Positions 3,243-40,145 of a DNA stretch of 64,000 nt are shown here, one piece after another (position 1 is the first letter of the stretch; each line of letters begins with the position of its first letter). The notes under the pieces are model-generated. The model ran no database searches, had not been told where the DNA came from, and worked only from the letters and a program-made list of their open reading frames with translations. The translations under genes and the position numbers were made by a program. Location: contig JACQUA010000300.1 in the NCBI GenBank assembly GCA_016210565.1, forward strand, positions 264 to 64,263, written 5' to 3'. This DNA is from Chloroflexota bacterium (lineage in GTDB: Bacteria > Chloroflexota > Dehalococcoidia > JACQUA01).

Positions 3243-3491
3243 GGGGTGTAGTGCATGGCTTTAGCCTTGCTGGGGGTGGGGTGACCAACGTAGCGACAGG
3301 GCTTGCCCCCGTCGTTGTCTGGTTGCAGGTCGGGGTTTCGACACCCGCCAGAGGTGCCGCTACGGTTGTTGGACAGGCAGGGACGCCCGCCCCACCGGGC
3401 ACGCGGCAGCGTGCCGCTACGGGGCGGGGTTGCTACTGGCTAACGGCTACTTGCTACTGTGCCACCACCCCCGCAGGCTAAAGACCTGCGG
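3243..3491 (-). repeat. REP-like hairpin cluster plus GTAGC heptamer array
   Basis: It contains a degenerate GGACAGGCAGGGACGCCC unit (3371), CGGCAGCGTGCCGCTACGG (~3405), and GTAGCCGCAGGTCTTTAGCCTGCGG (rc of 3468-3500). Plus-strand cta triplets occur at 3433, 3440, 3447 and 3454 with a 7-nt period. Confidence 0.8.
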
Positions 3492-3992
3492 CTACGCCCC
3501 CTTCTTTCCCAGGTAGATTTCCCTTGCCAGGGCCTGGCCCTGGGGGGTCTGGAAGACCTTTTCGATCACCCTTTCCAGCCGGGCGGGGTCTTTGAAGTCG
3601 TATTCGTCCTTCAGATTGACCAGCCAGTCCGCATCGTAGAGCACCTGGAAATTTCGGGTGGTGATGACGCCGGGGCTGTGGTGGTGGGCGATTATGTCGC
3701 AGATTTCGGCCACCTTGTCCGGGACGAAACCCAGGCGTTCCAGGATCGGCCTGGCCACGGCCGGCCCTTCCATTTCCTGGTATTTCCCGGCGGTGGAGCC
3801 GTGTTTGCGTTCCGCTTCATGGATGCCGATATCGTGGAGGACGCCCGCGGCGACGCACACGGCATAGTCCGTTTCTTCGTCCAGCAATTGCTCGACGTAA
3901 CCCGTCACCTTTTTGGCGTGGCGGATGCGTCTTTCATCCGGGCCGAAGTAAGTCTCCATGGCGTAGATGAGTTTCGTCTTCAGGTCTTCCAA
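3492..3992 (-). CDS. HD-domain metal-dependent phosphohydrolase
   Basis: 166 aa with LHDIG and IIAHHH motifs. It is the last gene of the Rrf2-YgbA-HD operon. The final codons KGA plus TAG lie inside a repeat element. Confidence 0.7.
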   Translation of the reverse strand: MEDLKTKLIYAMETYFGPDERRIRHAKKVTGYVEQLLDEETDYAVCVAAGVLHDIGIHEAERKHGSTAGKYQEMEGPAVARPILERLGFVPDKVAEICDIIAHHHSPGVITTRNFQVLYDADWLVNLKDEYDFKDPARLERVIEKVFQTPQGQALAREIYLGKKGA

Positions 3993-4019
3993 ATCTTTAC
4001 CCTCGTTGCGAAAGCGTGT

Positions 4020-4045
4020 GGACAGGCAGGGACGCCTGTCCTACC
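4020..4045 (-). repeat. single REP-like hairpin
   Basis: GGACAGGCAGGGACGCCTGTCCTACC sits directly downstream of the ygbA-like stop. The minus strand reads TAG CC GGTAGGACAGGC. Confidence 0.85.
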
Positions 4046-4047
4046 GG

Positions 4048-4425
4048 CTACTTCAAAAAGTAATGGGCGGCGATATCCAGTCTTCCGTGTTTGATCAGGT
4101 ACATGCCGGAGAATTTCATTACCTGGCGAATTTGTTGCTGGTAGAAGGGAGCGTAGCAGTGGGTCTCGCACTTCTTGCACATCGGTTTGGGATCGTAGGG
4201 GCACATCAGGAGCTTGACCACGCCGTGGGTGAGCAGCTTGTGACAGTTGGGGCAAAGCTGGAGCTGGTCCAGGGACAGGAAGGATGACAGGTCGACGGTC
4301 TTGACGGAAAAAGGCAGTTTCGCGGCGTCCTTGTGGTTCTCGCGGCAGAAAATGGAGACGAATTCCGTGAGGGTCTTGATGTCTTTTTGTCTTTTAGCAT
4401 CCAGCTTTCCGGCTAACTTCGACAT
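4048..4425 (-). CDS. ygbA: nitrous oxide-stimulated promoter family protein (YgbA-like)
   Basis: 125 aa with a Cys-rich pattern (CPNCHKLL...CPYDPKPMCKKCETHCYAP) that matches my memory of E. coli YgbA. It sits directly downstream of an Rrf2 regulator. Confidence 0.7.
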   Translation of the reverse strand: MSKLAGKLDAKRQKDIKTLTEFVSIFCRENHKDAAKLPFSVKTVDLSSFLSLDQLQLCPNCHKLLTHGVVKLLMCPYDPKPMCKKCETHCYAPFYQQQIRQVMKFSGMYLIKHGRLDIAAHYFLK

Positions 4426-4429
4426 GGTA

Positions 4430-4828
4430 TTATCCTTCGTTGATGAGGTCCCGGATGGTGGCGCCGGCGAAGACGGCCAGCATCTTCTCCTGGGCTTCCT
4501 CGATCTTCCGGCTCAGGAGGCAGTTCTTGATGGGGCAGTGGTTTCCGTCCCGGAAACACACCGCGATGGCGGTGGGACCGTCAACCAGTTCGATGATTTC
4601 CTTGAGGGTGATTTCTTCCGGGGGCCTGGCGAGCTGAATTCCCCCGCCTCTGCCCAGGGAGGTCTTGACATAGCCGCCGCGGGAGAGGGTCTGGACGACT
4701 TTTTCCAGGTGGTTTAGCGGAACGCCCAGATGCCGGCTCAGGGCGTTGCTGGTGGTCCTGGCCTGGTGGGAACCGAGATGCATGAGCGTCCGCAACGAAT
4801 AGTCGCTGGCCCGGGTCATTCTTAACAT
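4430..4828 (-). CDS. Rrf2-family transcriptional regulator, NsrR/IscR-like with three Cys ligands
   Basis: 132 aa with an N-terminal wHTH (SDYSLRTLMHLG...). The Cys cluster CFRDGNHCPIKNC is typical of Fe-S Rrf2 proteins. Confidence 0.85.
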   Translation of the reverse strand: MLRMTRASDYSLRTLMHLGSHQARTTSNALSRHLGVPLNHLEKVVQTLSRGGYVKTSLGRGGGIQLARPPEEITLKEIIELVDGPTAIAVCFRDGNHCPIKNCLLSRKIEEAQEKMLAVFAGATIRDLINEG

Positions 4829-4847
4829 GGCGCGTCTTTGTCTCTAT

Positions 4848-4887: not shown

Positions 4888-4924
4888 GCCCCGCGCAGGG
4901 AGGGCATTTCGTCGCCAGTACAAT

Positions 4925-4970
4925 GTAGGGTGGTTAAGTCCCGATGGCCATCGGGACTTAACCACCCTAC
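4925..4970. repeat. perfect 46-bp palindrome (GTAGGGTGG head family)
   Basis: GTAGGGTGGTTAAGTCCCGATGG is followed directly by CCATCGGGACTTAACCACCCTAC. It lies in the divergent region between the Rrf2 gene and the 5050 gene. Confidence 0.9.
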
Positions 4971-5049: not shown

Positions 5050-6402
5050 ATGGTCTTTGTCCTCATCACAGCTATCTTCGTCCTCGGTTTCATCAACAGG
5101 GCTTTTCACCTTTTCCGTCACCCCTGGGTGGGCGTCGATACCTTCCGGCACCTCTGGCTGGCCAGGGAAATAGGGAACACCGGCCGGCTGCCCAGGATGC
5201 TCTGGGGCTATCCCCACGTTCAACCAAACAACCTGCCTCCCTTTGCCGACGTCTTTCTGGCGGTCTGGCCGGAGAAGCTTCACCGGCGGTTGCAGTACCT
5301 CGCGCCCGGCCTTGACGTGGTGAGCGGCCTGATAATCCTTGCCGCCAGCGTGCCGGCCTTTGGTCTCGAAACAGCCGCGGTGGCCACGGCCTTCTATTTC
5401 TTGACGCCGATTGCCAGGGACAACCATTATTTGCTGGGTTCCCGCGCCTTCGGCAATACGCTGCTGGTGGCTACCCTGTTCCCTCTGTTCATTTATTATC
5501 AGACTTCGTGGCCTCCGGTCCTGATCATTGCCTCCGTTTTTGCTGCGCTGGTCATTCTGACGGACCGTCTGGCGCTGCAGAGCCTGGCCGCCGTTCTTAC
5601 CGGTTTGACCATCGGCCTCGGATCGCCGGCGCCCTTGGCGGTGCTGCTCATGGGTCTGGCGATGGCTTTTGTTTTTACCAAAGGCTACCTGGTGCGCACG
5701 CTGAAAGGGCATTTTGAATTCGTGGCTTTCATCGCGAGGAGAATCGGAGACCCCGGAACCAGAGCGGTCCTGCCCGGAGTATTTCCCAATCCCCTGTTGT
5801 ACCTGTTCAACGCCCCGCTGCTGGCCCTTGTCCCCTTCGTCTTTTCGCACGGTGGGACCATCGAAGTGGACTTCTTCCTTGTCTGGACGCTGTCTGTGGT
5901 GGTGCTGACGGTTCTCTGGGTCTTCGGCGAAGGCTACCGGCACCTGGCCCATGCGGCGCCGGCTTTCAGTATCCTGGCGGCGGCTTATTTCGTGAACAAC
6001 CAGGCCCATTGGGCGCTGGCGGGCTTTCTGGCGGTTTGTGCGGCTTTCACCGCAGTGAAAATCTACCGGGTGGAAAGGGAAAAGACGGCCTTTGTGTCGG
6101 AAGACCTGGTCGGGGCCTTCCGGTATGTGAAAGAGCAGTGCCGCCCCGCGGACGTCGTACTCTGTCTGCCGCTGGGAATGTCCCCGGCATGCTTTTACTT
6201 TTCAGGGCGCCGTGTCCTCTGGTCGGGAGGGGCGGAGGGGATGGTCTTTAACCGGACGGTCCTGCATCGAAAGGTTAAAGACAACAGGATAGACGAACTG
6301 GTGGGCGAATACGGGATAAAATGGATAGTAGCGGCGGATGGGCGGGAGATTCCCGGCAAGACTGTTTTTTCGGCAGGAGAGGCGAAGGTCAACAGGGTTT
6401 GA
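5050..6402 (+). CDS. polytopic membrane protein, possibly a GT-C type glycosyltransferase or polymerase
   Basis: 450 aa with about 10 or more hydrophobic helices followed by a ~110-aa soluble C-terminal domain. I recognise no diagnostic motif. The function is guessed from topology and proximity to the glycan cluster. Confidence 0.5.
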   Translation: MVFVLITAIFVLGFINRAFHLFRHPWVGVDTFRHLWLAREIGNTGRLPRMLWGYPHVQPNNLPPFADVFLAVWPEKLHRRLQYLAPGLDVVSGLIILAASVPAFGLETAAVATAFYFLTPIARDNHYLLGSRAFGNTLLVATLFPLFIYYQTSWPPVLIIASVFAALVILTDRLALQSLAAVLTGLTIGLGSPAPLAVLLMGLAMAFVFTKGYLVRTLKGHFEFVAFIARRIGDPGTRAVLPGVFPNPLLYLFNAPLLALVPFVFSHGGTIEVDFFLVWTLSVVVLTVLWVFGEGYRHLAHAAPAFSILAAAYFVNNQAHWALAGFLAVCAAFTAVKIYRVEREKTAFVSEDLVGAFRYVKEQCRPADVVLCLPLGMSPACFYFSGRRVLWSGGAEGMVFNRTVLHRKVKDNRIDELVGEYGIKWIVAADGREIPGKTVFSAGEAKVNRV

Positions 6403-7000: not shown

Positions 7001-7048
7001 GCAGGCGGGGACGCCCGTGCTACCGGTGCGGGGACGCCCGTGCTACCG
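7001..7048 (-). repeat. two tandem 23-nt REP-like units overlapping a gene 3' end
   Basis: The minus strand reads CCGGTAGCACGGGCGTCCCCGCA twice. The first copy is read through as PVARASPH. The TAG of the second copy (7022-7020) is the GT4 stop codon. Confidence 0.8.
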
Positions 7049-8207
7049 GTGGTAAGCAGCTACGGTAGAGCGCTTCGTAGTTCTCCACGTTCTTTTCCAG
7101 GGACAGATTGGCTTTGACCCTCTCCCTGCCTTCCGCGGCTTTCTTGCGGGCCTCATCCGGGTTGTCGATGATGTACTGTATCAAGTTTGCCAGTTCGGTC
7201 TTGTTCTGGTACTCTACCAGGTAGCCGGCGTCGTACTTCCGGACATCTTCGCCGGCGCCGGTGTGTTTGGTCACGATGATGGGCGCGCCGCACAGCAACG
7301 CTTCAAAGGGCACCCAGGCGCCCTGTTCAATTACGGAAGTCTGCACCAGGACGTCGGCGTCCACGAAAGCTGACAGCTTGTCGCTCCCGTCCAGGAAGCC
7401 GGTGAAGAGGACCTTCTCCGGGAGGTTCAGGTTCTTTATGAGTTGTTCCAGCTTTGTCTTGTGGCCGTCGTCAGGGCCGACGATTACGAGCCTCACATCA
7501 TCCCGGGATTTTACCAGTTCGCCAAAGGATTCCACCAGGAAGTCCACTCCCTTGACCCAGTGTATTCTGCCCAGGAACAGGACGACGTGCTTTTCCTTTA
7601 TCCCGTACTTGTCTCTGAAAACTCCCCGGGCGGGCAGCCGCGAGAACTCCTGGATGGAGAACGATGGCGGCACTTTGACTATTTTGCCCTGGTCCAGTCC
7701 CAGTTCCTTGTATTCGCTGACTCCCACGTCCGTCTCGGCCACCAGTTTGCAGGCGTTCCGGAAGACGTTGTTGCCATAGGCTATGTCGAAGAGCCACTTG
7801 AGCAGATACTTGAACCCTTTTCTCCCGCCGACGACCCTGGGGGTCGAGCCGTGGGCGTCCAGTACATAGGGGACTCCATATTTCCCGGCGTAACGTTGTA
7901 TCAATATGTTCTGGTAGCTCCGGGCCACGTGAAGGTGCACAACATCGAACTCCCTGAGGTGGTCCCGGACCGCCCGGGCCATCTCCGGCATGAAGAAGAA
8001 CCCGCCCATGGTCAACCGGAGGTGAAAAAGGTGCACCTTCACGCCCTTCAAGGAATTCGCATAGTTCTGGTCGAGCTCGAAGTCGCTGGCGTAGATGGAT
8101 ACTTCGTGCCCTCTGGCGGCCTGGGCCTGGCACAAGCGGTAGAGCAGCGTTACTGTGCCGCCACCCCTGGCGGGAGAAAAGTAATCGAAGACATGAAGGA
8201 TTTTCAT
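7020..8207 (-). CDS. glycosyltransferase family 4 (GT-B, group 1)
   Basis: 395 aa. The N-terminus MKILHVFDYFSPARGGG and the C-terminal EQGAWVPFEALLCGAPII (E-x7-E region) are typical of GT4. Confidence 0.85.
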   Translation of the reverse strand: MKILHVFDYFSPARGGGTVTLLYRLCQAQAARGHEVSIYASDFELDQNYANSLKGVKVHLFHLRLTMGGFFFMPEMARAVRDHLREFDVVHLHVARSYQNILIQRYAGKYGVPYVLDAHGSTPRVVGGRKGFKYLLKWLFDIAYGNNVFRNACKLVAETDVGVSEYKELGLDQGKIVKVPPSFSIQEFSRLPARGVFRDKYGIKEKHVVLFLGRIHWVKGVDFLVESFGELVKSRDDVRLVIVGPDDGHKTKLEQLIKNLNLPEKVLFTGFLDGSDKLSAFVDADVLVQTSVIEQGAWVPFEALLCGAPIIVTKHTGAGEDVRKYDAGYLVEYQNKTELANLIQYIIDNPDEARKKAAEGRERVKANLSLEKNVENYEALYRSCLPPVARASPHR

Positions 8208-8355
8208 AGAGAAGCCCCGGAGAAATCAAACATCCAAAAATCAAAGTGCAAAATGACAAATCAAAAGTCAAAAAACGGCGGGATCTTGCTGCCCTCGCGG
8301 AGGGGCTTCTTCAATCCCCCTTAATCCCCCTTTGAAAAAGGGGGAGAGGTGCTTT

Positions 8356-8455
8356 GGACAGGCAGGGACGCCCAGGCTTTGGACAGGCAGGGGCGCCCAG
8401 GCTTTGGACAGGCAGGGGCGCCCAGGCTTTGGACAGGCAGGGACGCCTGTCCTAC
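8356..8455 (-). repeat. four tandem 25-nt REP-like units
   Basis: GGACAGGCAGGG(A/G)CGCCCAGGCTTT starts at 8356, 8381 and 8406. A perfect hairpin unit spans 8431-8455. Its minus-strand GTAG head supplies the rSAM stop codon (8454-8452). Confidence 0.85.
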
Positions 8456-12176: not shown

Positions 12177-12195
12177 ATGGTGCTGGACATGCCAG

Positions 12196-13407
12196 CTACT
12201 TGCTACTTGCTACTTGGTGCTTCTTCTGCGCAATTGTCTCTTTTAGTATCTGCTCGAAACCGTCGGTCACTTTTGCCCAGCTAAGCCGCTCGGCGAACTG
12301 CCGGGCCTTTTTGCCCAGAGTCGCCGCGGAGCCATCACGGACCAGTTCGACGGCCCGGGCAAGCACGTCTTCCGGTCTGTCAACGTAGACTACCCCGTTA
12401 TTATCACCGAACTCCCTCATGACTCCGGGGAGCCTGGTGGAGACGACGGGTTTGGCCATGGCCATGTACTCGTATAGTTTTATCGGCACGATAGTCCTCA
12501 TTATATCATTGTTGTATGCGGGCAAAACGCAGACATCGGCCATGGCCACGTGAGCCGGAATTTCATCGTACGGCTTCTTGCCGGTCAGCACCATGAATCC
12601 GTTCAGGTTGTATTTCTCCTTTAGCTCGTTGAGTTCGTCGTAAGCGTCGCCTTCGCCCACGATGAGCAACTTGACCTTCGGGTCCTGCAGCCTGGAGAGA
12701 GCGAGGGCCGTTTCCTTAAGTCCGGAGAAATGATAGAGCCAGCCCATGAAGAAGATGACCAGGTCGTCGCCGGACAGTCCGTACTTTTCTCTCTGTGGAT
12801 GGTTGTTCAGCGACAGGTCGAAGCGCTCCAGCTCGATGCCGGCCCTTACCACCCGAATCTTCTCCGGGGGACATCCCATGCCGATGACATAGTCCCTGAG
12901 CTCGTCATTGATGGCGAGGACCGTATCGGCCATCTTGATGCTCCGCCGCTCTATGAGCCAGCCCAGAGGCCGGAGGAATTTGAAAGGGATCAGCCGGTGA
13001 ATGACGTCGATCCAGTAGAAAACGAATGGCAGCCGGTGCTTCTCCGCAGCCTTTCCGGCGAGGTAACTGACCATGCCGGGGCTGACGATGATATCCGGGG
13101 CGAACTCCTTTATCTGCCGGTCTATCTCCTTTTTCTGGGAGTAGAAAAGGGACAGGTAGTCCAGCAGCGGGACCTTTATTATCGGGGGGCGAATGACGGT
13201 TACCCTGGCGCCCCGGTGGGCTTTGGACACGTTCTCGAATACCTGGCGCCGCGACTTGAACTCCCTGGTGCCCTGGGACCGCCAGAGGAGCTCGAAGTCG
13301 ATGACCCGGATCTCGTGCCCCCTGAGGGACAGCATTTCGGCCAGGTGGTGCTGCTGCGCCGGGTTGCGCTTCAGCCAGTCGGTGTTCTGGGCGAGAAGGA
13401 TCTTCAT
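12196..13407 (-). CDS. glycosyltransferase family 4
   Basis: 403 aa with a GT-B C-terminal region (VCVLPAYNNDIMRTIVPIKLYEYMAMAKPVV). The last codons VASSK plus stop lie in a GTAGCAA x3 heptamer array, with plus-strand cta at 12196, 12203 and 12210. Confidence 0.8.
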   Translation of the reverse strand: MKILLAQNTDWLKRNPAQQHHLAEMLSLRGHEIRVIDFELLWRSQGTREFKSRRQVFENVSKAHRGARVTVIRPPIIKVPLLDYLSLFYSQKKEIDRQIKEFAPDIIVSPGMVSYLAGKAAEKHRLPFVFYWIDVIHRLIPFKFLRPLGWLIERRSIKMADTVLAINDELRDYVIGMGCPPEKIRVVRAGIELERFDLSLNNHPQREKYGLSGDDLVIFFMGWLYHFSGLKETALALSRLQDPKVKLLIVGEGDAYDELNELKEKYNLNGFMVLTGKKPYDEIPAHVAMADVCVLPAYNNDIMRTIVPIKLYEYMAMAKPVVSTRLPGVMREFGDNNGVVYVDRPEDVLARAVELVRDGSAATLGKKARQFAERLSWAKVTDGFEQILKETIAQKKHQVASSK

Positions 13408-14815: not shown

Positions 14816-14899
14816 TTCAATCTATCCATTTTACGGTTATTGGCTTGGGATCCACTTTCCCCCGCCCCCGCCCCGATGTATCGGGGCGGCTACGCCTTG

Positions 14900-15922: not shown

Positions 15923-15940
15923 CTTCATTGTCCCCCGGTT

Positions 15941-17010: not shown

Positions 17011-17219
17011 AGCAGTCCCCGGTCAGCCACGGAGCGTCATTGCGAATCCCGATTGCGTCGGGGCGAAGCAATCCCCTGGCATGCCGGCCAGGATGTATGG
17101 CACTTGCCGGTCGGCCTTCGTGGAAGGATCTTGAATTTGCAATCTGTAACGTTCAATCGCTTCGCCGTCTCGGTCTCCCCGCCCGGCAAGGCTAAAGCCA
17201 TGGGCTACACCCCTCGAGG

Positions 17220-19350: not shown

Positions 19351-19721
19351 GATGTCCTCCGTTCATGATATGCGAATAGCGGCCGGTACCGCCCTGAGCA
19401 CCGGGGCGAGGGCCGGAACTCTGACAAGCCCAGAAAGGCTGCAACTTGAGCACAATGGCGCGCCCGGTTGGAACTCCGGCAGACTGGACTCAAATGCAGG
19501 CATGACTTTCGTGGCGGTGTTGGAATTGCCAGGGAATTGCAACAAAAAAGGACGTATCCTCCTCACCCATACCCGTCGCTCGCCTTGTCGAACCTGCGGT
19601 CAATTTATCCGGGATGGTCTTCTTCAGCCCCCGGGGCGCCGGAAAGCTCCCGCGGAGTTGACTTGCGATTACTATCAGAAAGCCATGTCTCCTGCTTATT
19701 TTCAGTGCTTAGTTTACATTA

Positions 19722-20365: not shown

Positions 20366-20593
20366 ATTTTCTCCGGCACACTGTGATTATGACGTTTCTT
20401 GTTGCTTCCTGTCTATCCATGTTCATAGACATGTTGCAACTCAGGCACCGGGGAACTCCGTAGGGATGCCCCTTGTCCCGACGCGTCGGGGCGGAAACTC
20501 TGGCTGTCAGCCGGGTACGAAAGGGCAAGCCTTGCCGCCACGGGCTTTTTCCCCACACGCGCAGGCGTAAAGCCTGCGGCTACAACGGGTCGG

Positions 20594-26879: not shown

Positions 26880-27094
26880 TGCAAACGTCGAGCAGGAACC
26901 ACGTCGTTCCTGCTGAGCGGAGACGAGCGTATGCGTAGTACTAGAATCACCACCGCAGCGGCACAGCGTGCCGGGGGGGGCGGCCGGCCAACCAACCAAG
27001 CCGGCGCAACGTTTCCGCCCGTGTCAGAATATCCGGCTCACAGTCACGGCGGCCTGTGGTACATTGAAGAACGAGTTCTCAGGAGGTAACCCCA

Positions 27095-28465
27095 ATGGAT
27101 GCATCATTCGCCTTTGCCCGCAATATCGCGAATATTAGATTCGAAGATATTCCGGCTGAGGTAGTGGCCGTCGTCAAAAACGATGTTCTGGACACACTGG
27201 GCACCGCTCTGGCCGGAACCACGCTGGGCACCGGCTGCCGTGAGGTGGTCGAGCTGGTCAAAGAAGGGGGAGGGAAGCCCGACAGCACCATAATAGGATT
27301 TGGCGGTAAGGTCCCCGCGTGGATGGCGGCCCTGGCCAATAGCACCCTGGCCTACGCGCTCGATTTTGACGAGTGTCATATGACGGGACAAATACATTCG
27401 GGCGCCACCAACGTCCCGGCTGCCTTTGCCGTTGCCGAACGGCTGGGGAAAGTTGACGGCAAGAGGTTCCTGACGGCCCTGACGGTGGGCATCGACCTTG
27501 GCGGCAGAATGTCGGTTGCTTCGTACCCCAGGGCCAGGGGGTGGCACCCCACCACGGTTTACGGGTTTTTTGCCACAGCGGCCACCGCCAGCAAGCTGCT
27601 GGGACTGAGCGAACTGAAGGTGCAACATGCCCTGGGCATCGCCTATTCACAGGCGTCGGGGCATGAGCAGGGCCATGGCGAGGGGTCGGACACCAAGAAG
27701 GTCCAGGCCGGCTTTGCTTCCAAGGGGGGTGTCCTGTCCGCGCTGCTCGCCGAAAGAGGCATCACCGGCGCCATCAACAGTTTCGAAGGAGAGTTCGGAC
27801 TGTACAAGGTGTATCACGCCGGGAGGACGTACGACTCCGCGGGCCTGACCGCCGACCTTGGAAGAAGGTTCGAGGTGAGCAATCTTAGTTTCAAGCCTTA
27901 CCCCTCCGGCCGCGGCACCCATGCTTCCATCGATGCCACGCTGGAGATAGTGCGGGAACACAATCTCCGGCCTCAGGACATCGAGAAGATCACCGTGTTC
28001 AAGAGTGCGATAGCGGTGAAGGTCGAGGGAGGGGAGCGAAAGCGGCGTCCGGTGAATGCCCTGGACGCGCAGCTTAACGTACCGTACACCGTGGCGACGG
28101 CCGCGGTCAAGAGGCGGGTCGGCCTGACGGATTTCACCCCCGAGGGCATCAAAGACCCCGCGGTACTGGAGATGGCTCAAAAGGTATTCGTGGAGGAGTT
28201 CCCGGAGTTCGGCCCCAACAACTTCCATCCGGGGATAACGGAAATACGGACGAAGGACGGGAAGATGTACACGAAGCGGGTGAACGAGCCCTTCGGCAAT
28301 CCCGAGAACCCGATGCCCAAAGAGCAACTCGTCGGGAAGTTCATGGAGTGTGCTTCCCACTCGGTCAAGCCATTGTCGAAGGCAACGCTCGACCGGGTGG
28401 TAGAGATGGCCATGAACCTGGAACAGGTTGACGATGCCGGCGCCATCATCCGGCTGCTCGCCTGA
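27095..28465 (+). CDS. MmgE/PrpD-family protein
   Basis: 456 aa. The N-terminus FARNIANIRFEDIPAEVVAVVKNDVLDTLGTALAG is typical of the family. AGGAGG lies upstream of the ATG. Confidence 0.85.
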   Translation: MDASFAFARNIANIRFEDIPAEVVAVVKNDVLDTLGTALAGTTLGTGCREVVELVKEGGGKPDSTIIGFGGKVPAWMAALANSTLAYALDFDECHMTGQIHSGATNVPAAFAVAERLGKVDGKRFLTALTVGIDLGGRMSVASYPRARGWHPTTVYGFFATAATASKLLGLSELKVQHALGIAYSQASGHEQGHGEGSDTKKVQAGFASKGGVLSALLAERGITGAINSFEGEFGLYKVYHAGRTYDSAGLTADLGRRFEVSNLSFKPYPSGRGTHASIDATLEIVREHNLRPQDIEKITVFKSAIAVKVEGGERKRRPVNALDAQLNVPYTVATAAVKRRVGLTDFTPEGIKDPAVLEMAQKVFVEEFPEFGPNNFHPGITEIRTKDGKMYTKRVNEPFGNPENPMPKEQLVGKFMECASHSVKPLSKATLDRVVEMAMNLEQVDDAGAIIRLLA

Positions 28466-28487
28466 CGCACGACGAGCGGGTCGCGCC

Positions 28488-29023
28488 AGATCATTGTCGG
28501 CAACCCTGTCCTGACCATGAAGCTGTTCAGCCAGATCTCCGTGGTCATGGGTCCGGATTGGTGGAGGAAATTGGTGGCGAACAGCCCGGTAATGGTTGAT
28601 GATGACAGGCTGGGCAACGAGTGGCTGGCCCACGGGAAATACCCCATCGCCATACTCTCCAGACAAAACATCCAGATGGAGTTCATGAAGGCCGGGGCGC
28701 CTGTCGAAATGGTGAGGACCAAAGAGGCAGCCTTCCTGGATGGCGGGCAGATCGCCACGTCCCTGATCGACCGCGCGCCGCATCCCAACGCCGCCAGGGT
28801 TTTTGTAAACTGGTACATGAGTAAAGAGGGAAGCTATCTCCAGAGCACCGTCATCGGCGCCCAGTCCGCCAGGCTTGACGTGCCCCTCGGCCACATAGCT
28901 CCCGAACTAAGGCGGGATGCGTCGGTCAAATACCTGAGCACCAGGACGGAGGACTTCAACCTGCGCATGCTGAAAGAGACACTGCTGGCGCAGGAAGTAT
29001 TCGCCCCGGTGCTGCGAAAATAG
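28488..29023 (+). pseudogene. 5'-truncated copy of the solute-binding protein gene (3' ~178 codons)
   Basis: IVGNPVLTMKLFSQISVVMGPDWWRKLVAN...FAPVLRK aligns with residues ~205-382 of the 29498-30646 product. Homology begins immediately after the PrpD stop, and no N-terminal half is present. Confidence 0.8.
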
Positions 29024-29053
29024 GTGGCACAGGCGGGGACGCCTGTGCCACCG

Positions 29054-29344
29054 GGCAACGTGTCGCTCAGGCGGACCGAGTATGGCGAGCCTCCTGAGTC
29101 TCCTTCCGGCACGGTCCACCGTAGGATCAAGTAGCGGACCAATCTTTCCGCGGGGGTGGACATGGTGTTCTCGGCGTCCGGTGAACGCCCTTGACGCCCA
29201 ACTTAACATATCCTATACTGTGGCTACGGCCGCAATGAAAAGGCGGGCCGGCTTGATCCATTGACCCTGAACAGCGTCGTCGAGATGGTCATGAACCTGG
29301 AAGAACTGGATGATGTGGGCGGTATCATCCGGGTGGTCGCTTGA
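29054..29344 (+). pseudogene. decayed CapA and MmgE/PrpD fragments
   Basis: GNVSLRRTEYGEPPES..VHRRIK matches the CapA N-terminus. RRPVNALDAQLNISYTVATAAMKRRAGL and VVEMVMNLEELDDVGGIIRVVA match PrpD internal and C-terminal parts. Stops and large deletions lie between them. Confidence 0.75.
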
Positions 29345-29497
29345 CGACGGTAGCGGCAAAGGAACGGTTTGAATATTGCTTGACGCGGTCCCTGCACGCC
29401 GGGAAAGGAGGCGCCACATGGAGGCATGACCGAAATAGATGATGCCGCAATCCCATTTGTTGAACAGTAATCATGTCTCCATTTTCAGGAGGGATAC

Positions 29498-30646
29498 GTG
29501 AACAGAAAAGAGATAGCAAGAGTGGCTTTCGCCGGGCTGTTGGCGCTCAGCTTGGTCATAGCATCATGTGCATCCGTCCAGCAGCCCGCCCCCCCGGCGG
29601 CAGCGCCCGGGCAAGGGGCGGCGCCTCTCCAGGGATGGGAAGCGGACTGGCAGAGGGTACTGGCCGCGGCCAGACAGGAGGGACCACTCAATATCTACAG
29701 TCCGGCCGCCGCCGACCTGCGCGTGGGAATGACGGAGGCTTTCAAAGAGAAATATGGGCTGGACATAGAATGGACGGCGGGCAAAGCCGCGGAACTCGCC
29801 GAGAAGTACCTGCGGGAGCGGCAGGCGGGGCTTCACATCGCCGACCTGATGATGGGTTCGACCCAGAGACAGCTAACGGTGATGAAGCCCGGCGGCATGC
29901 TTGAGCCGATAAAGCCCCTGATTATTTTGCCTGAAGTCCTGGACATGAAGTTGTGGTTCCAGGGGGAGATACCCTGGGTGGACAACGAGAAGATGTACAC
30001 GATGGAGTCTATCCTTGCGCCCGACTATAAGGTGGCGGTCAACACGAAGATGGTGAGGCCCGAGGAAATCGCGTCCTACAACGACCTGCTGAACCCGAAG
30101 TGGAAGGGGAAGATCGTTGTGGGCAATCCTGTGCTGACCATGAAACTGTTCAGCCAGATTTCCACCGTCATGGGACCGGATTGGTGGAGGAAACTGGTGG
30201 CCAACGACCCGGTGATAGTGGATGACAACAGGCTCGGCACCGAATGGCTCGCCCACGGCAAGTACCCCATCGCCATACTCCCGAGACAGGATATCCGGGA
30301 GGAGTTCGTAAGAGCGGGTGCGTCCATCGATCTGGTGAAGCCCAGGGAAGCCAGTTTCCTGGACGGAGGGGCCATCGGTACCTCGATGTTCAAGAAGGCG
30401 CCCCATCCCAACGCGGCTCGAGTATTCGCCAACTGGTTCCTGAGCAAAGACGGAAGCTATCTCCAGAGCCGAGTCATCGGCCGGCAGTCGGCCAGGCTCG
30501 ATGTGCCCATCGACCACATCGCCGCTGACATGAGGCGCGATCCCTCAGTCAAATACGTGGTCACGGTTAATGAGGAGTTCAACCAGCGCATGGCGAACGA
30601 AACCCCGCTGGCGCAGGAGATCTTCGCCCCCCTGCTGCGAAAGTAG
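29498..30646 (+). CDS. ABC-type extracellular solute-binding lipoprotein (Fe3+/polyamine-type PBP2 fold)
   Basis: GTG start after CAGGAGGG. The lipobox is LVIASC. PHPNAARVFANWFLSKDG is typical of family-1 SBPs. No permease or ATPase is adjacent. Confidence 0.75.
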   Translation: MNRKEIARVAFAGLLALSLVIASCASVQQPAPPAAAPGQGAAPLQGWEADWQRVLAAARQEGPLNIYSPAAADLRVGMTEAFKEKYGLDIEWTAGKAAELAEKYLRERQAGLHIADLMMGSTQRQLTVMKPGGMLEPIKPLIILPEVLDMKLWFQGEIPWVDNEKMYTMESILAPDYKVAVNTKMVRPEEIASYNDLLNPKWKGKIVVGNPVLTMKLFSQISTVMGPDWWRKLVANDPVIVDDNRLGTEWLAHGKYPIAILPRQDIREEFVRAGASIDLVKPREASFLDGGAIGTSMFKKAPHPNAARVFANWFLSKDGSYLQSRVIGRQSARLDVPIDHIAADMRRDPSVKYVVTVNEEFNQRMANETPLAQEIFAPLLRK

Positions 30647-30732
30647 GAGTGCCACAGGCGCCCCGCCTGTGTGGGCGGCCGTTGCGCAAGGCGTCGGCTT
30701 GCGCAAGCTATGCGCCGGCAGATCGTCGAGTA

Positions 30733-31896
30733 ATGGTGAGTGACGTGAAGATCTCAGACAACGAAATCGTAATCCACGCGGTGGGAAACGTGTCCCCACG
30801 GCGGACGGAGTATGGTGAACCTGTCGAATCCCCTTTTGACATGGTCCACCGGAAGATCAAGGAAGCAGATGTATCCCTGTGCCAGTTGGAGATGATGTTT
30901 TCGACCGGCGGAGACGCTTTCCAGCGCCGAGAGGGTACGCCGGATTCAGCAATTGACCCCGCAAACGTTGAATCGCTGGTCTTCGGGGGATTTAGCGTCA
31001 TGTCCCACGCCAGCAACAACTGTCTCGACTATGGCCCCGCGGCGCTGCTTGATTCGATAGACGCCGTCCGGAGCAAGGGCATCCGGGTGATCGGCGCCGG
31101 AAAAGACATCGCCGAAGCCCGATCGCCGGCGGTGGTGGAACGAAAGGGGATTAAGGCCGGATTCCTGGCCTACAGCTCGGTAGTTCCCGCCGGCTACGAG
31201 GCGCGGGATGGAAGACCGGGTTGCGCGCCTGTTCGTGTGTTGGCCCGTTCCGCGGCCCGGGGGGATGGGACGGGAGTGCCCTCAGAGGCAACCGGCATAC
31301 CTGACGAAGATGATGTCCGGGCCATGGAAGCGGATATTCGCAAGCTGCGAAATCAGGTGGATGTTGTTGCTGTTTCAATGCACTGGGGGCAAAGCTCCGT
31401 GCCAGGAATCACGGCGGACCAGCGCGTAATCGGTCACAGGGCTATTGACGCCGGAGCAGACCTGGTCGTTGGGCATCACGGCGGCACCGTCAAGGGCATA
31501 GAAGTATACAAAGGAAGGGCTATCTTCTACTGCCTGGGTAACTTTGCCCTGGATAGGGCCCGTACGTATAAACCGGCCGTGGAAGGGGTGGGCGCCGGAG
31601 ATGTTCCGCGTGCGTCTCACAAATCGCAAACGGAGCCGGGATGGGAACGGAACCCGGGCCACAGGGACCGGCGAAATACGATGATGGTCAAATGCGTTGC
31701 CGGCAAGAATGGCGTCCGGAAGGTGTCGTTCCTGCCTGGCCGGACCAATCAGAAGGCGGAGCCTGAATTTGTTTCTCGGAACGATGAAAGATTTCAGGAA
31801 GTCCTGCGCTACATAGGGCCGCAGTGCCGGGATCTGGGGACCAATCTCACGGTGGAGGGGGATGAAGTAGTCGTTTGCGACTCGACCGGGGAGTAG
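30733..31896 (+). CDS. CapA/PGA_cap-family protein (paralog 2)
   Basis: MVSDVKISDNEIVIHAVGNVSPRRTEYGEP..., with the same motif set as 25734-26879. The track ORF begins at 30649. Confidence 0.8.
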   Translation: MVSDVKISDNEIVIHAVGNVSPRRTEYGEPVESPFDMVHRKIKEADVSLCQLEMMFSTGGDAFQRREGTPDSAIDPANVESLVFGGFSVMSHASNNCLDYGPAALLDSIDAVRSKGIRVIGAGKDIAEARSPAVVERKGIKAGFLAYSSVVPAGYEARDGRPGCAPVRVLARSAARGDGTGVPSEATGIPDEDDVRAMEADIRKLRNQVDVVAVSMHWGQSSVPGITADQRVIGHRAIDAGADLVVGHHGGTVKGIEVYKGRAIFYCLGNFALDRARTYKPAVEGVGAGDVPRASHKSQTEPGWERNPGHRDRRNTMMVKCVAGKNGVRKVSFLPGRTNQKAEPEFVSRNDERFQEVLRYIGPQCRDLGTNLTVEGDEVVVCDSTGE

Positions 31897-32004
31897 AACC
31901 CGGACGCGTGGTCCCGGAATGGCGCGTCACAAACTCGCTCGGTCGTCCGCGGGCATGGCACGCCGTGCCCCTACGGCGGCCGGAACACTGAGGAGGTAAC
32001 CTGA

Positions 32005-33381
32005 ATGGATGCATCTTCTGCCCTGGCGCACAGCGTAGCGAATATCAGATTCGATGATATTCCTGCTGAGGCGATAAGGGTCGCCAAAATGTCCCTTCTG
32101 GATACGCTGGGTGTCACCACGGCTGCGAGCACGCTGGGTCGCGGATGCCGTGAGGTGGTCGAGTGCGTCAAGGAAGGGGGAGGGAAAGAGGAAAGCACGA
32201 TTCTGGGTTTTGGCGGCAAGGCGCCATCGTACATGGCGGCGCTGGCCAACGGCATGATGGCCCATGCTCTCGATTATGACGATATCCACGAAGCGTCGTC
32301 CATCCATGCCGGCGCTGTGATTGTTCCGGCCGCCTTGGCGGTCGCCGAGCGGGCAGGGAAAGTGAACGGAAAGGAGTTCATTACGGCAGTGGTGCTGGGC
32401 GTGGAGGTTGGCTGCAGGCTCTCGCTGGCCGCCGCCCCGCGAGTCAGCGGGTTTCATCCGACCCCTGTGTTCGGGTTCTTTGGCGCGGCGGCTGGTGCCG
32501 GCAGGATACTGGGATTGGATGAAGCCCGCGTCCAGAATGCCCTTGGTATCGCCTATTCCCAGGCAGCCGGTAACCGCCAGTCCGTAAGCGATGCGGCCCT
32601 GACAGAGCGTCTGGAAGTGGGCTTCGCGGCGAAGGGCGGCGTTCTGTCCGCGCTGCTGGCCGAAAAGGGTATTACCGGAGCGATGAACAGCCTGGAAGGC
32701 GAGTTTGGATTCTACAAAGTGTACAACGGTGGGAAGTACAAGCCCGAAGTTCTGCTCTCAAACCTGGGCACGAGGTTTGAGGTGAGCAATCTGAGCTTCA
32801 AGCCGTATCCCTGCGGCCGCAGCCAGCACGCTTCCATCGATGCTACGCTGGAAATGGTGCGGGAATACGATATCCAGGCCGGGGACGTGGAGCGTATTAC
32901 GGTATTCAAAAGCCAGATGGCGGTAAAGGGCGTGGGCGTTCCCGCGGATCGAAAGCGGAGGCCCGAGAACCCCGTCGACGCCCAGTTCAGCATACCGTAT
33001 ACTACGGCGACTGCGGTGGTCAGGAGGAAGGTGGACCTGAGGGATTTCACGCCTGAGGCTATCAGGGACCCCGCTGTCCTCCAGGTGGCCCAAAAAGTGG
33101 ACGTGGAAGTATGTCCGGAATTCGAACCGTCCAACTACCATCCCGGGATAACGGAGATCAGGACGAAAGGAGGCAAAACGTATTCGCGGCGGGTAGAAGA
33201 GCCCCATGGCAATCCGCACCACCCGATTCCAGAGGGGGAGATGATAGAGAAATTCATGGAGTGTGCATCTCACGCCATGAGGCCGCTGTCAAAGGAAGAT
33301 GTCAGCCGCGTCATCGAGATGGTCATGAAACTGGAAGAACTGGATGATGTGGGCGCCATTTCCCGGCTGCTTGCCCGGTAG
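32005..33381 (+). CDS. MmgE/PrpD-family protein (paralog 2)
   Basis: 458 aa, collinear with 27095-28465. The stop TAG (33379-33381) lies inside the GGTAG head of a REP hairpin. Confidence 0.85.
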   Translation: MDASSALAHSVANIRFDDIPAEAIRVAKMSLLDTLGVTTAASTLGRGCREVVECVKEGGGKEESTILGFGGKAPSYMAALANGMMAHALDYDDIHEASSIHAGAVIVPAALAVAERAGKVNGKEFITAVVLGVEVGCRLSLAAAPRVSGFHPTPVFGFFGAAAGAGRILGLDEARVQNALGIAYSQAAGNRQSVSDAALTERLEVGFAAKGGVLSALLAEKGITGAMNSLEGEFGFYKVYNGGKYKPEVLLSNLGTRFEVSNLSFKPYPCGRSQHASIDATLEMVREYDIQAGDVERITVFKSQMAVKGVGVPADRKRRPENPVDAQFSIPYTTATAVVRRKVDLRDFTPEAIRDPAVLQVAQKVDVEVCPEFEPSNYHPGITEIRTKGGKTYSRRVEEPHGNPHHPIPEGEMIEKFMECASHAMRPLSKEDVSRVIEMVMKLEELDDVGAISRLLAR

Positions 33382-33402
33382 GACAGGCGTCCCTGCCTGT
33401 CC
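33377..33402 (+). repeat. REP-like hairpin in plus orientation after a plus-strand gene
   Basis: GGTAGGACAGGCGTCCCTGCCTGTCC. This is the same unit as at 1242-1439 but inverted, matching the strand of the upstream gene. Confidence 0.9.
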
Positions 33403-33557
33403 GCCGGAAAAAGGCCCGGGGCACGTGCAACGGCCCTCTCGGTATCGACATCCGCTCCGCTCTGCGAGAGTCCCGACGCCTCGGGACAAGGGGTGTCGCT
33501 ACGGGCTTCCCAGTGTCTGGATTGCAGTGAAGTTGCGGCTGTGCTAGACTCCCTGCC

Positions 33558-34544
33558 ATGAAAGTGCTGGTAACCGGCGCTGCGGGGTACATCGGCAGCG
33601 TCGTCACCGAGTTGCTGGTCAAGGAGGGTATCGCCGTCGTTGGGGTGGACAATCTGAGCCAGGGACACCGGCAGGCGGTGGCGCCCGGGGCAGCCCTGGT
33701 CGAAGGCGACGTCGGCGATGCCTCGTGCCTGGGACGGATATTCAGCGGCCATGCCATCGATGCTGTGCTCCACCTGGCGGCTAACAGCATCGTCGAGTCC
33801 TCGATGACCGACCCGGCGCTTTATTTCCGGAACAACGTGACCCATGGCATTAACCTTCTCGACGCCATGACCAGGAACGGCGTGAAACGGCTCGTCTTCT
33901 CTTCCAGCGCGGCGGTGTACGGGGAGCCGGCCTCTGTTCCGGTCACCGAAGAGGCGGCCATGGCGCCTGTCAACGCCTACGGCGAGACCAAGCTGATGTT
34001 CGAACGGATACTGAAGTGGTTCGAACGCGCCCATGGCTTGAAGCATATCTCCCTGCGCTACTTCAACGCCGCGGGCGCCAGCGAAAACTACGGCGAGGTC
34101 CATAGCCCGGAGACCCATCTCGTGCCCAACATACTGAAGGTCGCTCTTGGGAAGGGCGGCGCCATCAGGTTGTTTGGCGATGATTACCCGACCCTGGACG
34201 GCACCTGCGTCCGCGACTACATCCACGTGAGCGACATCGCCCGGGCCCATATCCTGGCGCTGCGGCACATCGACCGGGTGGGATCCTCAGTTTACAACAT
34301 GGGCAACGGGAATGGCTTTTCGGTGAAGGAAGTCATCGGCGTTTGCCGGAAAGTTAGCGGTCACCCGTTGCCGGTCGAGGTACACCCGCGCCGCGCCGGC
34401 GACCCGCCGGTGCTGGTGGCCAGCGCGGAGAAGATACGGCGGGAGCTCGGTTGGAGGCCGGACTATCCCGGGCTGGAAGATATTGTGAGGACCGCCTGGG
34501 AATGGCACCGGAAATACCCGGAGGGGTATTCTGGAGCCGCGTAG
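33558..34544 (+). CDS. galE: UDP-glucose 4-epimerase
   Basis: 328 aa with MKVLVTGAAGYIGS, YGETK and FNAAGA. Confidence 0.9.
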   Translation: MKVLVTGAAGYIGSVVTELLVKEGIAVVGVDNLSQGHRQAVAPGAALVEGDVGDASCLGRIFSGHAIDAVLHLAANSIVESSMTDPALYFRNNVTHGINLLDAMTRNGVKRLVFSSSAAVYGEPASVPVTEEAAMAPVNAYGETKLMFERILKWFERAHGLKHISLRYFNAAGASENYGEVHSPETHLVPNILKVALGKGGAIRLFGDDYPTLDGTCVRDYIHVSDIARAHILALRHIDRVGSSVYNMGNGNGFSVKEVIGVCRKVSGHPLPVEVHPRRAGDPPVLVASAEKIRRELGWRPDYPGLEDIVRTAWEWHRKYPEGYSGAA

Positions 34545-34978
34545 GGTGGGTTAAGCACAGCGGGGTGGTAGGGATGCGGCGCGCTGTGCGAACCCACCAC
34601 GAAGACAAGATCCCAAGTTCCAAACACCAAATTCCAAACAATCCCCCATGCCCGCTTGCAGCGGGCACCATGAAGGATGAACATGTCATTCTGAGCGAAG
34701 CGAGCGCAGCGGGCGTAGTCGAAGAATCTTTCGGGGCGGGGAAGCAAAGACCCTTCGCCTGCACCTTCGCTTTGCTCAGGGCTTCGGCTCAGGGTGACAT
34801 TTTCAGAGCAATATCAAAACCCCAACCGGCGAAACCCCAAAAGGGTTGGCCGCCAATTTGTTTATATTGAGACTTGAACCATCGGGGGTTTGTTTGGAAT
34901 TTGGAACTTGGTTTTTGGAATTTGCTTAGAATGGTGGGTTCGCGCCCCGATGCAATCGGGGCGGTTAACCCACCCTAC
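34541..34978. mobile_element. ~438-bp nested palindromic composite element between convergent genes
   Basis: Outer GTAGGGTGGGTTAA heads sit at both ends: plus strand at 34541, minus strand at 34978. Inside are CCAAA-rich and TTTGG-rich arms (34605-34645 / 34890-34925). The inner GTCATTCTGAGCGAAGCG...CTCAGGGTGACAT element spans 34684-34800. Confidence 0.75.
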
Positions 34979-36395: not shown

Positions 36396-36855
36396 GTAGG
36401 GGTGGGTTAAGCATCCCGATGGTATCGGGACGCTTAACCCACCAGGCCAAAGGAGGAAATTCCTAATCCGAAGTACCAAGTACCAAACAAAGCTCAAATT
36501 CGAATGTTCAAACGCCAAAGAGCGTTGACCGCCGCTTTTGACATTGAGACTTGAATAATTGGAATTTGCTCAGAAAATAGGCTGTCACCCTGAGCGAAGT
36601 CGAAGGGTCTTTCGTCCCGCGCCCCGCCCCGAAAGAACTTGTCCTGAGCAGAGCGAAGGATTCTTCGACTATCCCGATTCTATCGGGACTGCGCTCGCTT
36701 CGCTCAGAATGACATTTTCATCCTTCATGGTGCGCCATCGGCGCATGGGTGATTGTTTGGAATTTGGAACCTGGTTATTGGAATTTGCTTAGAATGGTGG
36801 GTTCGCGCAGCCACCCGGCACAACCCTGCGTCCGTCTGTGCTTAACTCACCCTAC
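36396..36855. mobile_element. second copy of the nested palindromic composite element
   Basis: GTAGGGGTGGGTTAAGC is at 36396 and GCTTAACTCACCCTAC ends at 36855. The inner GTCACCCTGAGCGAAG...CTCAGAATGACAT element spans 36584-36715. It lies in a divergent intergenic region. Confidence 0.7.
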
Positions 36856-36870
36856 CGTTGCAGAGTGAAC

Positions 36871-39249: not shown

Positions 39250-39257
39250 AGTTGGCT

Positions 39258-39415
39258 GTCATTCTGAGCGTAAGCGAAGAATCCTTCGGGGTGGAGCGCC
39301 GGGCAAAAGACCCTTCGACTTCGCTCAGGGTGACAATGTCATTGAAAGCGTAAGCGAAGAATCCTTCGGGGTGGAGCGCCAGGCAAAAGACCCTTCGACA
39401 GGCTCAGGGTGACAA
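39258..39415 (+). repeat. two tandem ~78-bp copies of the GTCATTCTGAGCG...CTCAGGGTGACA element
   Basis: Copies span 39258-39336 and 39338-39415. The second ends 1 nt before the response-regulator ATG. Confidence 0.85.
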
Positions 39416-39416
39416 T

Positions 39417-40121
39417 ATGACCAAGCAAGCAACGATACTTATAGTTGACGACGACGTCAGGCTTCTCCGGTTTGTCCGGGCGAACCTGGAGTCGGTTGAT
39501 TACCGGGTCCTGGTGGCCGAGGAAGGGACGCAGGCCCTCGCGCTGATGGAAAAGGAAATGCCCGACCTGGCGATACTCGACATAATGTTGCCCGGCATGG
39601 ACGGCTTTGAGCTGTGCCGGCGCATCCGCGAGTTTTCCACGCTGCCCATTATCATGCTGACGGCCAAAGCAGAAGAATCGGACAAGATCAGGGGATTCAA
39701 GCTGGGGGCTGATGATTACCTGACGAAGCCCTTCAGCGCGCTGGAATTGCTGGCGCGGGTAGAAGCGGTGCTGAGACGGGCCAGGCTCCCCGAGGAACGC
39801 AAGAATACGGTGCTGACCATAGGGGAACTGAGCATCGATTTCGTACGCCGGCGGGTTACGATGGCGGGAAAGGAAGTGGACCTGACGCCGACCGAGTACA
39901 AGTTGCTCCAGCATCTGGCGAGCAATACAGGCAAGGTGATGCTGCACGAGGACCTGCTCACCAAGGTCTGGGGCGTCGAATACCGGGATGAGCTGGATTA
40001 CCTGCGCGCCTATATCCGCCGCCTGCGCCAAAAGATCGAAGCCGATCCTACCCATCCGGTCTATCTCCTGGCCAAGCCGGGAGTGGGCTATATCCTGGTC
40101 GCGCCTGCAAAGGGGGCGTAG
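39417..40121 (+). CDS. OmpR/PhoB-family response regulator
   Basis: The receiver domain has DDD...D(54)...K, plus a winged-helix output (LTPTEYKLLQHLA). The last codons KGA plus TAG lie in a repeat element. Confidence 0.9.
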   Translation: MTKQATILIVDDDVRLLRFVRANLESVDYRVLVAEEGTQALALMEKEMPDLAILDIMLPGMDGFELCRRIREFSTLPIIMLTAKAEESDKIRGFKLGADDYLTKPFSALELLARVEAVLRRARLPEERKNTVLTIGELSIDFVRRRVTMAGKEVDLTPTEYKLLQHLASNTGKVMLHEDLLTKVWGVEYRDELDYLRAYIRRLRQKIEADPTHPVYLLAKPGVGYILVAPAKGA

Positions 40122-40145
40122 CCGCAGGTCTTTAGCCTGCGGGGG
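40113..40145 (+). repeat. REP-like hairpin GGGGCGTAGCCGCAGGTCTTTAGCCTGCGGGGG
   Basis: It is identical over 33 nt to the reverse complement of 3468-3500. In both places it encodes the ...GA plus TAG end of the upstream gene. Confidence 0.9.

Follow-up and report, generated by a model that had tools for sequence, protein, structure and literature searches.

The window analysed is a 64-kb stretch of a Chloroflexota (JACQUA01) contig, in which short G+C-rich hairpins, each preceded by an unpaired GTAG, lie at the 3′ ends of genes and in a number of cases supply the stop codon. The combination of an unpaired GTAG with a G+C-rich stem, an arrangement in arrays and the absence of T-runs is how GTAG-type repetitive extragenic palindromes (REPs) are built, and the repeats were therefore assigned to this class. 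Genes were called using a codon-bias model trained on the window itself. Left of 54 kb, the part to which the stop-codon counts were restricted, nearly every call was backed by Pfam domains reaching near the C-terminus. At least five sequence families with one architecture, in which a G+C-rich stem comes after an unpaired GTAG, were distinguished in the window:

type A: GTAG-GACAGGC-N6-GCCTGTCC, with the stem GGACAGGC; 11 copies in the window, 0 expected
type B: architecture of type A, with a GTAC head
type C: GTAG followed by a CCGCAGG stem
type D: GTAG-CGGCACGC, with a GGCACGC stem
type E: longer, GTAG-GGTGGGT(T/G)AA...AACCCACC (GGTGGGTTAA head), with a variable inner hairpin; 10 heads

Strictly defined heads numbered 34 within the 64-kb window, and GTAC, ATAG and GTAA were present as head variants. 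In a hairpin scan, GTAG was followed by a hairpin in 9.4% of cases, compared with 1–2.6% for 11 control tetramers (approximately 4-fold). Stem lengths ranged from 7 to 13 bp. On folding against shuffled sequences, type A, type E and the element at 29019 had z-scores between −3.6 and −6.9, and the scores of types C and D were weaker. Singletons, head-to-tail arrays and one 46-nt palindrome were all present among the repeats. For types A–D, miniature inverted-repeat transposable elements (MITEs) are an improbable assignment, since these types are single hairpins of 25–40 nt and too short for a MITE (100–400 nt, with terminal inverted repeats and target-site duplications). Copies with a TAG that coincides with a gene's stop codon were located as follows:

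3468–3500, minus strand: type C REP (GTAG-CCGCAGG-tctttag-CCTGCGG); TAG 3492–3494 is the stop of an HD-domain gene
40113–40145, plus strand: type C REP, identical to 3468–3500; TAG 40119–40121 is the stop of an OmpR-type response-regulator gene, tail AKGA
8431–8455, minus strand: type A REP (GTAG-GACAGGC-gtccct-GCCTGTCC); TAG 8452–8454 is the stop of a B12-binding radical SAM gene
33378–33402, plus strand: type A REP; TAG 33379–33381 is the stop of PrpD2
34541–34598, plus strand: type E element (GTAG-GGTGGGTTAA...inner hairpin...GAACCCACC), z = −5.4; TAG 34542–34544 is the stop of galE
34933–34978, minus strand: type E element, z = −4.2; TAG 34975–34977 is the stop of the convergent NTP-transferase/hexapeptide gene
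7005–7050, minus strand: two tandem 23-nt units (ACCGGTAGCACGGGCGTCCCCGC); the second GTAG gives the stop 7020–7022 of a GT4 glycosyltransferase gene
30643–30675, plus strand: GTAG with a CCACAGGCG/CGCCTGTG hairpin; TAG 30644–30646 is the stop of a solute-binding protein (SBP) gene
29020–29052, plus strand: 13-bp hairpin with an ATAG head (GGTGGCACAGGCG), a variant head, z = −6.9; TAG 29021–29023 is the stop of an SBP fragment
44533–44651, minus strand: repeat of about 120 nt with a GTAGGGTAGGTGAAGC head; TAG 44648–44650 is the stop of a heparinase/alginate-lyase gene
17218–17228, minus strand: 11-nt head remnant GGGGCGTAGCC; TAG 17220–17222 is the stop of a nucleotide-sugar dehydrogenase (wecC-like) gene; a weak case

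A preliminary description of this DNA had placed TAG stops inside repeat heads in the genes for the radical SAM protein, PrpD2, galE, the nucleotidyltransferase, the lyase, GT4, the HD protein and the response regulator, and all of these were confirmed. For the wecC-like gene, which it had added to the series, the 11-mer GGGGCGTAGCC is common to type C copies and is present in 3 copies where 0.03 were expected, but no convincing hairpin was found after the stop in the fold test. In all, 9 stops were supplied by strict heads and 2 by variants (the ATAG head and the 11-nt remnant), corresponding to about one quarter of the genes within 54 kb, whereas about 14 of the TAG stops do not belong to a repeat head. 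The 33-nt identity that had been claimed between the HD and response-regulator gene ends is exact (the reverse complement of 3468–3500 equals 40113–40145), and the match stretches to 39 nt at 97% (one mismatch). The 5′ flank AAGGGGGCG of the copy at 3468–3500 codes for the final residues K-G-A of the HD protein. In the GT4 gene at 7020, the GTAG of the first unit, being out of frame, is translated, and both 23-nt units code for the terminal PVARASPHR, in line with the earlier translation of the first unit as PVARASPH. The repeat of about 120 nt occurs in 3 copies (the others at 42271–42390 and 48033–48151), and the element at 44533–44651 gave no stable overall fold on folding.

The Pfam-supported genes left of 54 kb ended with TAG in 25 cases, with TGA in 11 and with TAA in 2 (TGA in 13, if two small helix-turn-helix (HTH)/PIN open reading frames (ORFs) are included). 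The TAG share was 25/38 (~66%), and the earlier count of 24 TAG, 13 TGA and 2 TAA needed hardly any correction. A GTAG repeat with its head proximal to the gene was found ≤400 nt downstream of 15 genes. The distance from stop codon to GTAG head, put forward in the preliminary description as a quantity worth examining, showed a spike at offset 0 (9 of these 15 gene-proximal heads), and 12 of the 15 copies sat ≤14 nt from the stop. Three further heads lay 7–14 nt past a stop, and the remaining ones were secondary array copies or stood between divergent genes. In 25 of the 34 strict copies, including each unit of the tandem arrays, the GTAG stands away from any stop, and GTAG therefore travels with the element. 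Copies that adjoin a gene end with the stop outside the head were the following:

4020–4044, minus strand: type A REP; head begins 3 nt past the TAG stop (4048–4050) of the YgbA_NO gene
14868–14896, minus strand: GTAG-CCGCCCCGA hairpin, 6 nt past the TGA stop of a polysaccharide deacetylase gene; it adjoins the gene and the stop is not replaced
20560–20586, minus strand: type C variant, 10 nt past the TAG stop of a UDP-GlcNAc 2-epimerase gene; the orthologue has TAG too

The nucleotide preceding the stop was likewise biased, a G at position −1 being found in 17 of 25 TAG stops versus 3 of 15 other stops (p = 0.008). This G stood before 68% of the TAG stops of the window, before 50% of those of near relatives and before 35% of those of distant relatives, compared with 20–26% for other stops. 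Since the excess falls with distance, it suggests that some hairpin-less TAG stops in the window and the near relatives may be decayed heads, and that the deeper TAG baseline of the clade is independent of REPs.

Gene ends were compared with those of syntenic relatives at 70–87% protein identity (GCA_041642995.1, GCA_900218215.1 and GCA_964518085.1) and with those of paralogues. The conserved core of the HD protein ends with ...ALAREIYL, past which the tail varies among the homologues inspected; the orthologues of the two syntenic relatives stop at TGA after unrelated tails, and the window protein ends in GKKGA-TAG. For the response regulator, the orthologous ends were VAPG-TAA, VAPEV-TGA and VAPE-TAG, compared with VAPAKGA-TAG in the window, which is 2–3 residues longer, the AKGA being encoded by the repeat's own 5′ flank. 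A type C element in one relative carries another 5′ flank, and the AAGGGGGC flank is therefore specific to the pair of HD and response-regulator genes. The orthologues of galE have TAA or TAG stops and last residues that differ from those in the window, and of the two NTP-transferase orthologues one has TAG at the matching position (RPLKK* versus RPGKG* in the window) and the other TGA. The PrpD1 paralogue ends in LLA-TGA and PrpD2 in LLAR-TAG, with one extra residue (R). Homologues of GT4 (7020) usually end approximately 9 residues past the YExLY motif, the window protein 14 residues past it, and the tails are unrelated; its length is 395 aa versus a modal 388–390 aa, the homologues being about 5 aa shorter. 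The YgbA_NO orthologues end with TGA in both relatives. TAG was also found in the orthologues of the ABC-2, epimerase, Epimerase_2 and NTP-transferase genes, and in all four SBP paralogues.

The remodelling of C-termini and stops that had been proposed is borne out for HD, the response regulator, galE and GT4, the ends of which are replaced or extended by 1–9 residues relative to orthologues or homologues. Orthologues with the same terminal residues and TAG stops had been named as evidence to the contrary. The ends of HD, the response regulator and GT4 differ from those of their counterparts, whereas some TAG stops (those of the ABC-2, epimerase, Epimerase_2, NTP-transferase and SBP genes) are, as judged from these comparisons, older than the repeat. 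Misassembly at the repeats was rejected, as gene order across the repeat-bearing junctions matches that of the relatives.

The type A pattern (GTAGGACAGGC-N6-GCCTGTCC) was then scanned for with one genome per species, and the matches listed comprised at least 119 loci with at least 138 copies. Hosts among these matches were metagenome-assembled genomes (MAGs) of Acidobacteriota, Planctomycetota, Lentisphaerae, Calditrichaeota, Zixibacteria, Desantisbacteria, Verrucomicrobia and Anaerolineales, often with several copies per genome and with a loop sequence that varies by lineage. For 62 of the 138 listed copies, a long ORF with coding-like G+C content at third codon positions (GC3) ended near the head. 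The offset from stop to head TAG was 0 in 26 of these copies and −4 to −13 in 19, and a positive offset, with the ORF running on through the hairpin, was seen in 4. The ratio of 26:4 (in frame to read-through) contrasts with a neutral expectation of 1:2 (p = 2 × 10−9). The offset-0 spike is thus replicated across phyla, so that stops supplied by the head TAG characterise the type A REP family in general and are not a peculiarity of the window. A metagenome scan with the form of the type A repeat specific to the window gave only 21 stretches, all unrelated. No description of the type A REP sequence was found in the literature searched. Its presence in many phyla suggests either that one REP/transposase system has moved from phylum to phylum or that convergence was strong.

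The reading preferred here, which is given a probability of roughly 0.8, is that REP copies at gene ends with the head TAG in frame replace stops, rewrite C-termini and raise the local share of TAG. The repeats would have multiplied in the genome, and in the window they pile up directly 3′ of genes. A copy landing on, or recombining over, the last codons in the right frame would end translation immediately with the TAG of its unpaired head. Because translation would halt at once, such a copy would be nearly neutral, at a cost to the protein that orthologue comparison puts at 0–3 residues and rarely up to 9. In the other two frames the protein would be extended through the hairpin, and such copies would presumably be purged by selection, to which the ratios of 26:4 and ~10:1 point. 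The outcome would be the conversion of native stops to TAG, small rewrites of the C-terminus and, in this window, a rise of local TAG from ~40% to ~66%. Mobilisation is assumed, by analogy, to occur in trans by a transposase of the REP-associated tyrosine transposase (RAYT) type, and a hairpin starting at the stop would probably also affect the mRNA 3′ end or translation. Whether elements target or overwrite gene ends, or whether selection retains the copies that abut an ORF, had been left open in the preliminary description; the data speak rather for copies that land nearly at random or overwrite gene ends and are then sorted by selection.

Three points weigh against this reading. Firstly, no RAYT was found in the window or the other loci examined: the called genes of the window gave no Pfam match to a RAYT gene, and when six-frame ORFs of the window and the other loci examined were crudely screened for the HUH motif, 5 candidates with 0 Pfam matches resulted, so that the mobility of the repeats is presumed. 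Secondly, the proteins differ in length from their orthologues by −1 to +5 residues, a range tighter than random insertion and truncation tolerance predict, which leaves room for some site preference. Thirdly, the TAG stops outside repeat heads and the 40% TAG of the relatives (see below) make the repeats only a partial cause of the TAG majority.

The most probable of the alternatives, although it is considered unlikely, is targeted insertion, by which REPs would integrate just 3′ of an existing (G)TAG and mark TAG stops rather than make them. Such targeting would account for the scarcely altered protein lengths and for the exact abutment on the stop, with an offset of −4 in 5 cases among the matches listed. 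It would also agree with the TAG at the same codon position in the NTP-transferase orthologue of one relative, with the TAG ends of four of four SBP paralogues, REP present or not, and with the abundance of TAG stops in the clade (~40%). At single sites, such as those of the NTP-transferase and SBP genes, it may apply. It is contradicted by the TGA stops of the HD and YgbA orthologues in both relatives and of the PrpD paralogue. The response-regulator orthologues, which end with TAA, TGA or TAG, tell against it as well, since the AKGA tail of the window protein is new and comes from the 5′ flank of the repeat, as do the 25 copies that carry their GTAG away from stops, all array units included.

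TAG accounts for ~20% of bacterial stops, independent of GC content (PMC3549826, PMC9348620), and the preliminary description had started from the premise that TAG is the rarest stop. In this clade the premise fails: in six relatives from the Chloroflexota, in which GTAG repeats are few or absent, TAG provided 49 of 122 stops (40%), made up of 26/61 in the near relatives and 23/61, versus 11 TGA (~2:1), in three more distant contigs with almost no repeats. These counts speak for a clade-wide TAG preference, due to release-factor balance or mutation bias, as the sole cause, with an incidental overlap between stops and heads. The removal of the 10–11 head-derived stops points the same way, leaving 52–54% TAG in the window, which is not significantly different from the relatives. 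Taken alone, this preference is nonetheless regarded as quite improbable. The window overall is still above the relatives (25/38 versus 49/122, p = 0.009), and left unexplained would be the identical sequences of 25–39 nt after the stops of unrelated genes, the offset-0 spike, the G(−1) excess and the stops and tails that have changed in comparison with the orthologues. As the relatives are already at 40% TAG, the TAG majority is only partly due to the repeats: they lift TAG from ~40–50% to 66% in the window, and the preference itself was not created by them.

The least probable alternative, and a very remote one, is that of ordinary intrinsic (Rho-independent) terminators or locally duplicated structures of the 3′ untranslated region (UTR) instead of a dispersed family: G+C-rich stem-loops do lie directly downstream of genes, but no T-runs follow the stems, a scan gave 10 terminator sites versus 14.2 in shuffles and none at the stop-donating heads in gene orientation, and identical sequences are met again at loci without relation to one another, in tandem arrays and in genomes of other phyla. 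Two explanations of the TAG majority by altered decoding were also rejected. Pyrrolysine decoding of TAG is contradicted by an MtmB-like ORF (24130–25737) with no in-frame TAG and by TAG ending 25 well-aligned genes, and a loss of release factor 2 (RF2) or recoding of TGA by the TGA stops of conserved orthologues in the window and the relatives.

With REP copies taken as donors of stops, it is conceivable, though doubtful, that TAG is the genome-wide majority stop here, by an expansion of GTAG REPs atop an unusual clade preference for TAG over TGA (~40% versus ~20%). If this were true, mobile repeats would measurably shape the usage of stop codons, contrary to the rule of a disfavoured TAG, and one REP stem (GGACAGGC) in at least 8 phyla would imply that one REP/transposase system has spread between phyla.

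REP heads as stops have already been described, and what differs here is a new lineage with new sequence families. In the survey of Di Nocera, De Gregorio & Rocco (2013, BMC Genomics 14:522; PMC3733652), 24 families of GTAG REPs were reported in Proteobacteria, Cyanobacteria, Chloroflexi (Thermomicrobium roseum) and the Planctomycetes-Verrucomicrobia-Chlamydiae (PVC) group. Their termini often supply a TAG stop, some copies inside ORF ends code for residues, and slightly more than 10% of the intragenic copies lie at ORF 3′ ends (PMC3733652). The window repeats resemble these families, including SMAG of Stenotrophomonas maltophilia, in the unpaired GTAG beside a G+C-rich stem of 6–13 bp, in the presence of several families per genome, in their occurrence as singletons, dimers and clusters, and in their position just downstream of ORFs. 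The stem sequences of the window were not found in the text or supplements examined of that paper. The host, in contrast, is an uncultured Chloroflexota, and neither the share of genes affected (~1/4 in 54 kb) nor a TAG majority was quantified there. Possibly new are hence the quantitative aspects, i.e. the quarter of genes affected, the rise of TAG to a majority and the unusual baseline of the clade.

Similarities with the REPs in bacterial interspersed mosaic elements (REP-BIME) and with the REP doublets forming hairpins (REPINs) of E. coli and Pseudomonas are the GTAG-headed hairpin, the extragenic 3′ site and the tandem and inverted layouts (e.g. 4925–4970). Unlike those systems, which have RAYT (TnpA_REP) transposases, none was seen in the window or the loci examined, and head-to-tail arrays, described as under-represented in most genomes, are prominent in the window. 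As far as the work is represented in the citing article, E. coli REPs ≤15 nt from the stop were reported to lower translation (Liang, Rudd & Deutscher 2015, cited in PMC12306157). In that account the stop-proximal REPs follow an independent stop, whereas in the window the REP head itself is the stop and the hairpin starts there, as read from the DNA. Rickettsia palindromic elements (RPEs) likewise join coding sequence and add residues, but they insert in frame within genes and are translated throughout, whereas the window elements mostly end the ORF and add 0–9 terminal residues.

For annotation, this means that many genes of REP-rich genomes owe their last residues and their stop to repeats, and that C-terminal differences between orthologues and skews in stop-codon usage there are not to be read as selection on protein or termination. 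For stop-codon evolution, a baseline of 40% TAG, and 66% where REPs are dense, would run counter to the published picture of ~20% and a disfavoured TAG (PMC3549826, PMC9348620).

The clustering known from REPs was seen in the arrays at 1242–1466 and 8351–8455, in the doublet at 7005–7050 and in the palindrome at 4925–4970:

1242–1466, minus strand: seven type A REPs head-to-tail with a 29-nt period in the core, plus type D REPs; downstream of the ABC-2 permease gene
8351–8447: partial type A array with a 25-nt period after the radical SAM stop (with the full copy, 8351–8455)
4925–4970: 46-nt palindrome with perfect arms of 17 bp, a 4-nt GGCC centre and GTAG at either end (GTAGGGTGGTTAAGTCCCGATggccATCGGGACTTAACCACCCTAC)

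The palindrome lies between an Rrf2 regulator gene (4430–4819, minus strand) and an unannotated gene for 450 aa (5050–6402, plus strand), and its layout resembles that of two REPs joined head-to-head within a promoter region. At its left edge, the window begins with a gene (1–1062, minus strand) that codes for release factor 1 (prfA) and is followed by prmC in the relatives. Release factor 1 is the factor that reads UAG. The gene is located upstream of the largest REP array, which begins approximately 180 nt away.

TAG was also carried by another kind of repeat. A heptamer array, (AAGTAGC)x3 at 12195–12216 on the minus strand, codes for VASSK and the TAG stop (12196–12198) of a second GT4 gene, the orthologue of which ends in ...ANPS-TAA. 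TAG-containing heptamer microsatellites, namely (TAGTGAG)n, (AAGTAGC)n, (TAGTCAG)n and (AAGATAG)n, were found at or just past gene ends in the window (1476–1505 and 12195–12216) and in the relatives (loci L123, ~12362–12430; L146, ~19340–19393; L150, ~892–920). With a period of 7 nt, TAG reaches all three frames within three units. The array of L123 stands between two convergent genes and has TGA on the opposite strand.

Three further parts of the window showed rearrangements or a deviating composition. The genes ydjM and galE adjoin in the relatives (L146, L148) and are separated by ~10 kb in the window (23360–33560). This interval contains the MtmB-like gene, two PGA_cap genes, two PrpD genes with a PrpD fragment, and, in blocks with internal duplications (repeat families D5–D7, D10 and D13), SBP genes; several of its genes end in repeat heads, and judged from this content the region looks recently expanded or rearranged. 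A lower-GC island at 54000–62600 (GC 0.50–0.53) is without GTAG repeats, and TGA and TAA stops dominate there. Its genes code for a Fic protein, a RadC-like (UPF0758) protein and a type IIG-like restriction-modification enzyme of 1068 aa (N6_Mtase/Eco57I/MmeI), and its edges are formed by a duplicated PrpD 3′ fragment (60660–60918 and 62606–62864, 90% identical). Finally, a CoA-transferase ORF of 908 codons (51319–54045, minus strand) consists of two CoA_transf_3 units fused in frame by a repeat of ~185 nt (52573–52756), and represents either a repeat-mediated gene fusion or a pseudogene. The first unit lacks the ~20 C-terminal residues that usually come after GEHNDEILL; translation of the repeat gives the linker CHSERSERSERS.... 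This repeat belongs to a different family (GTCA(C/T)(C/T)CTGAGCGAAGCGA...), which is also present at 34684–34801, 36583–36750 and 49557–49677.

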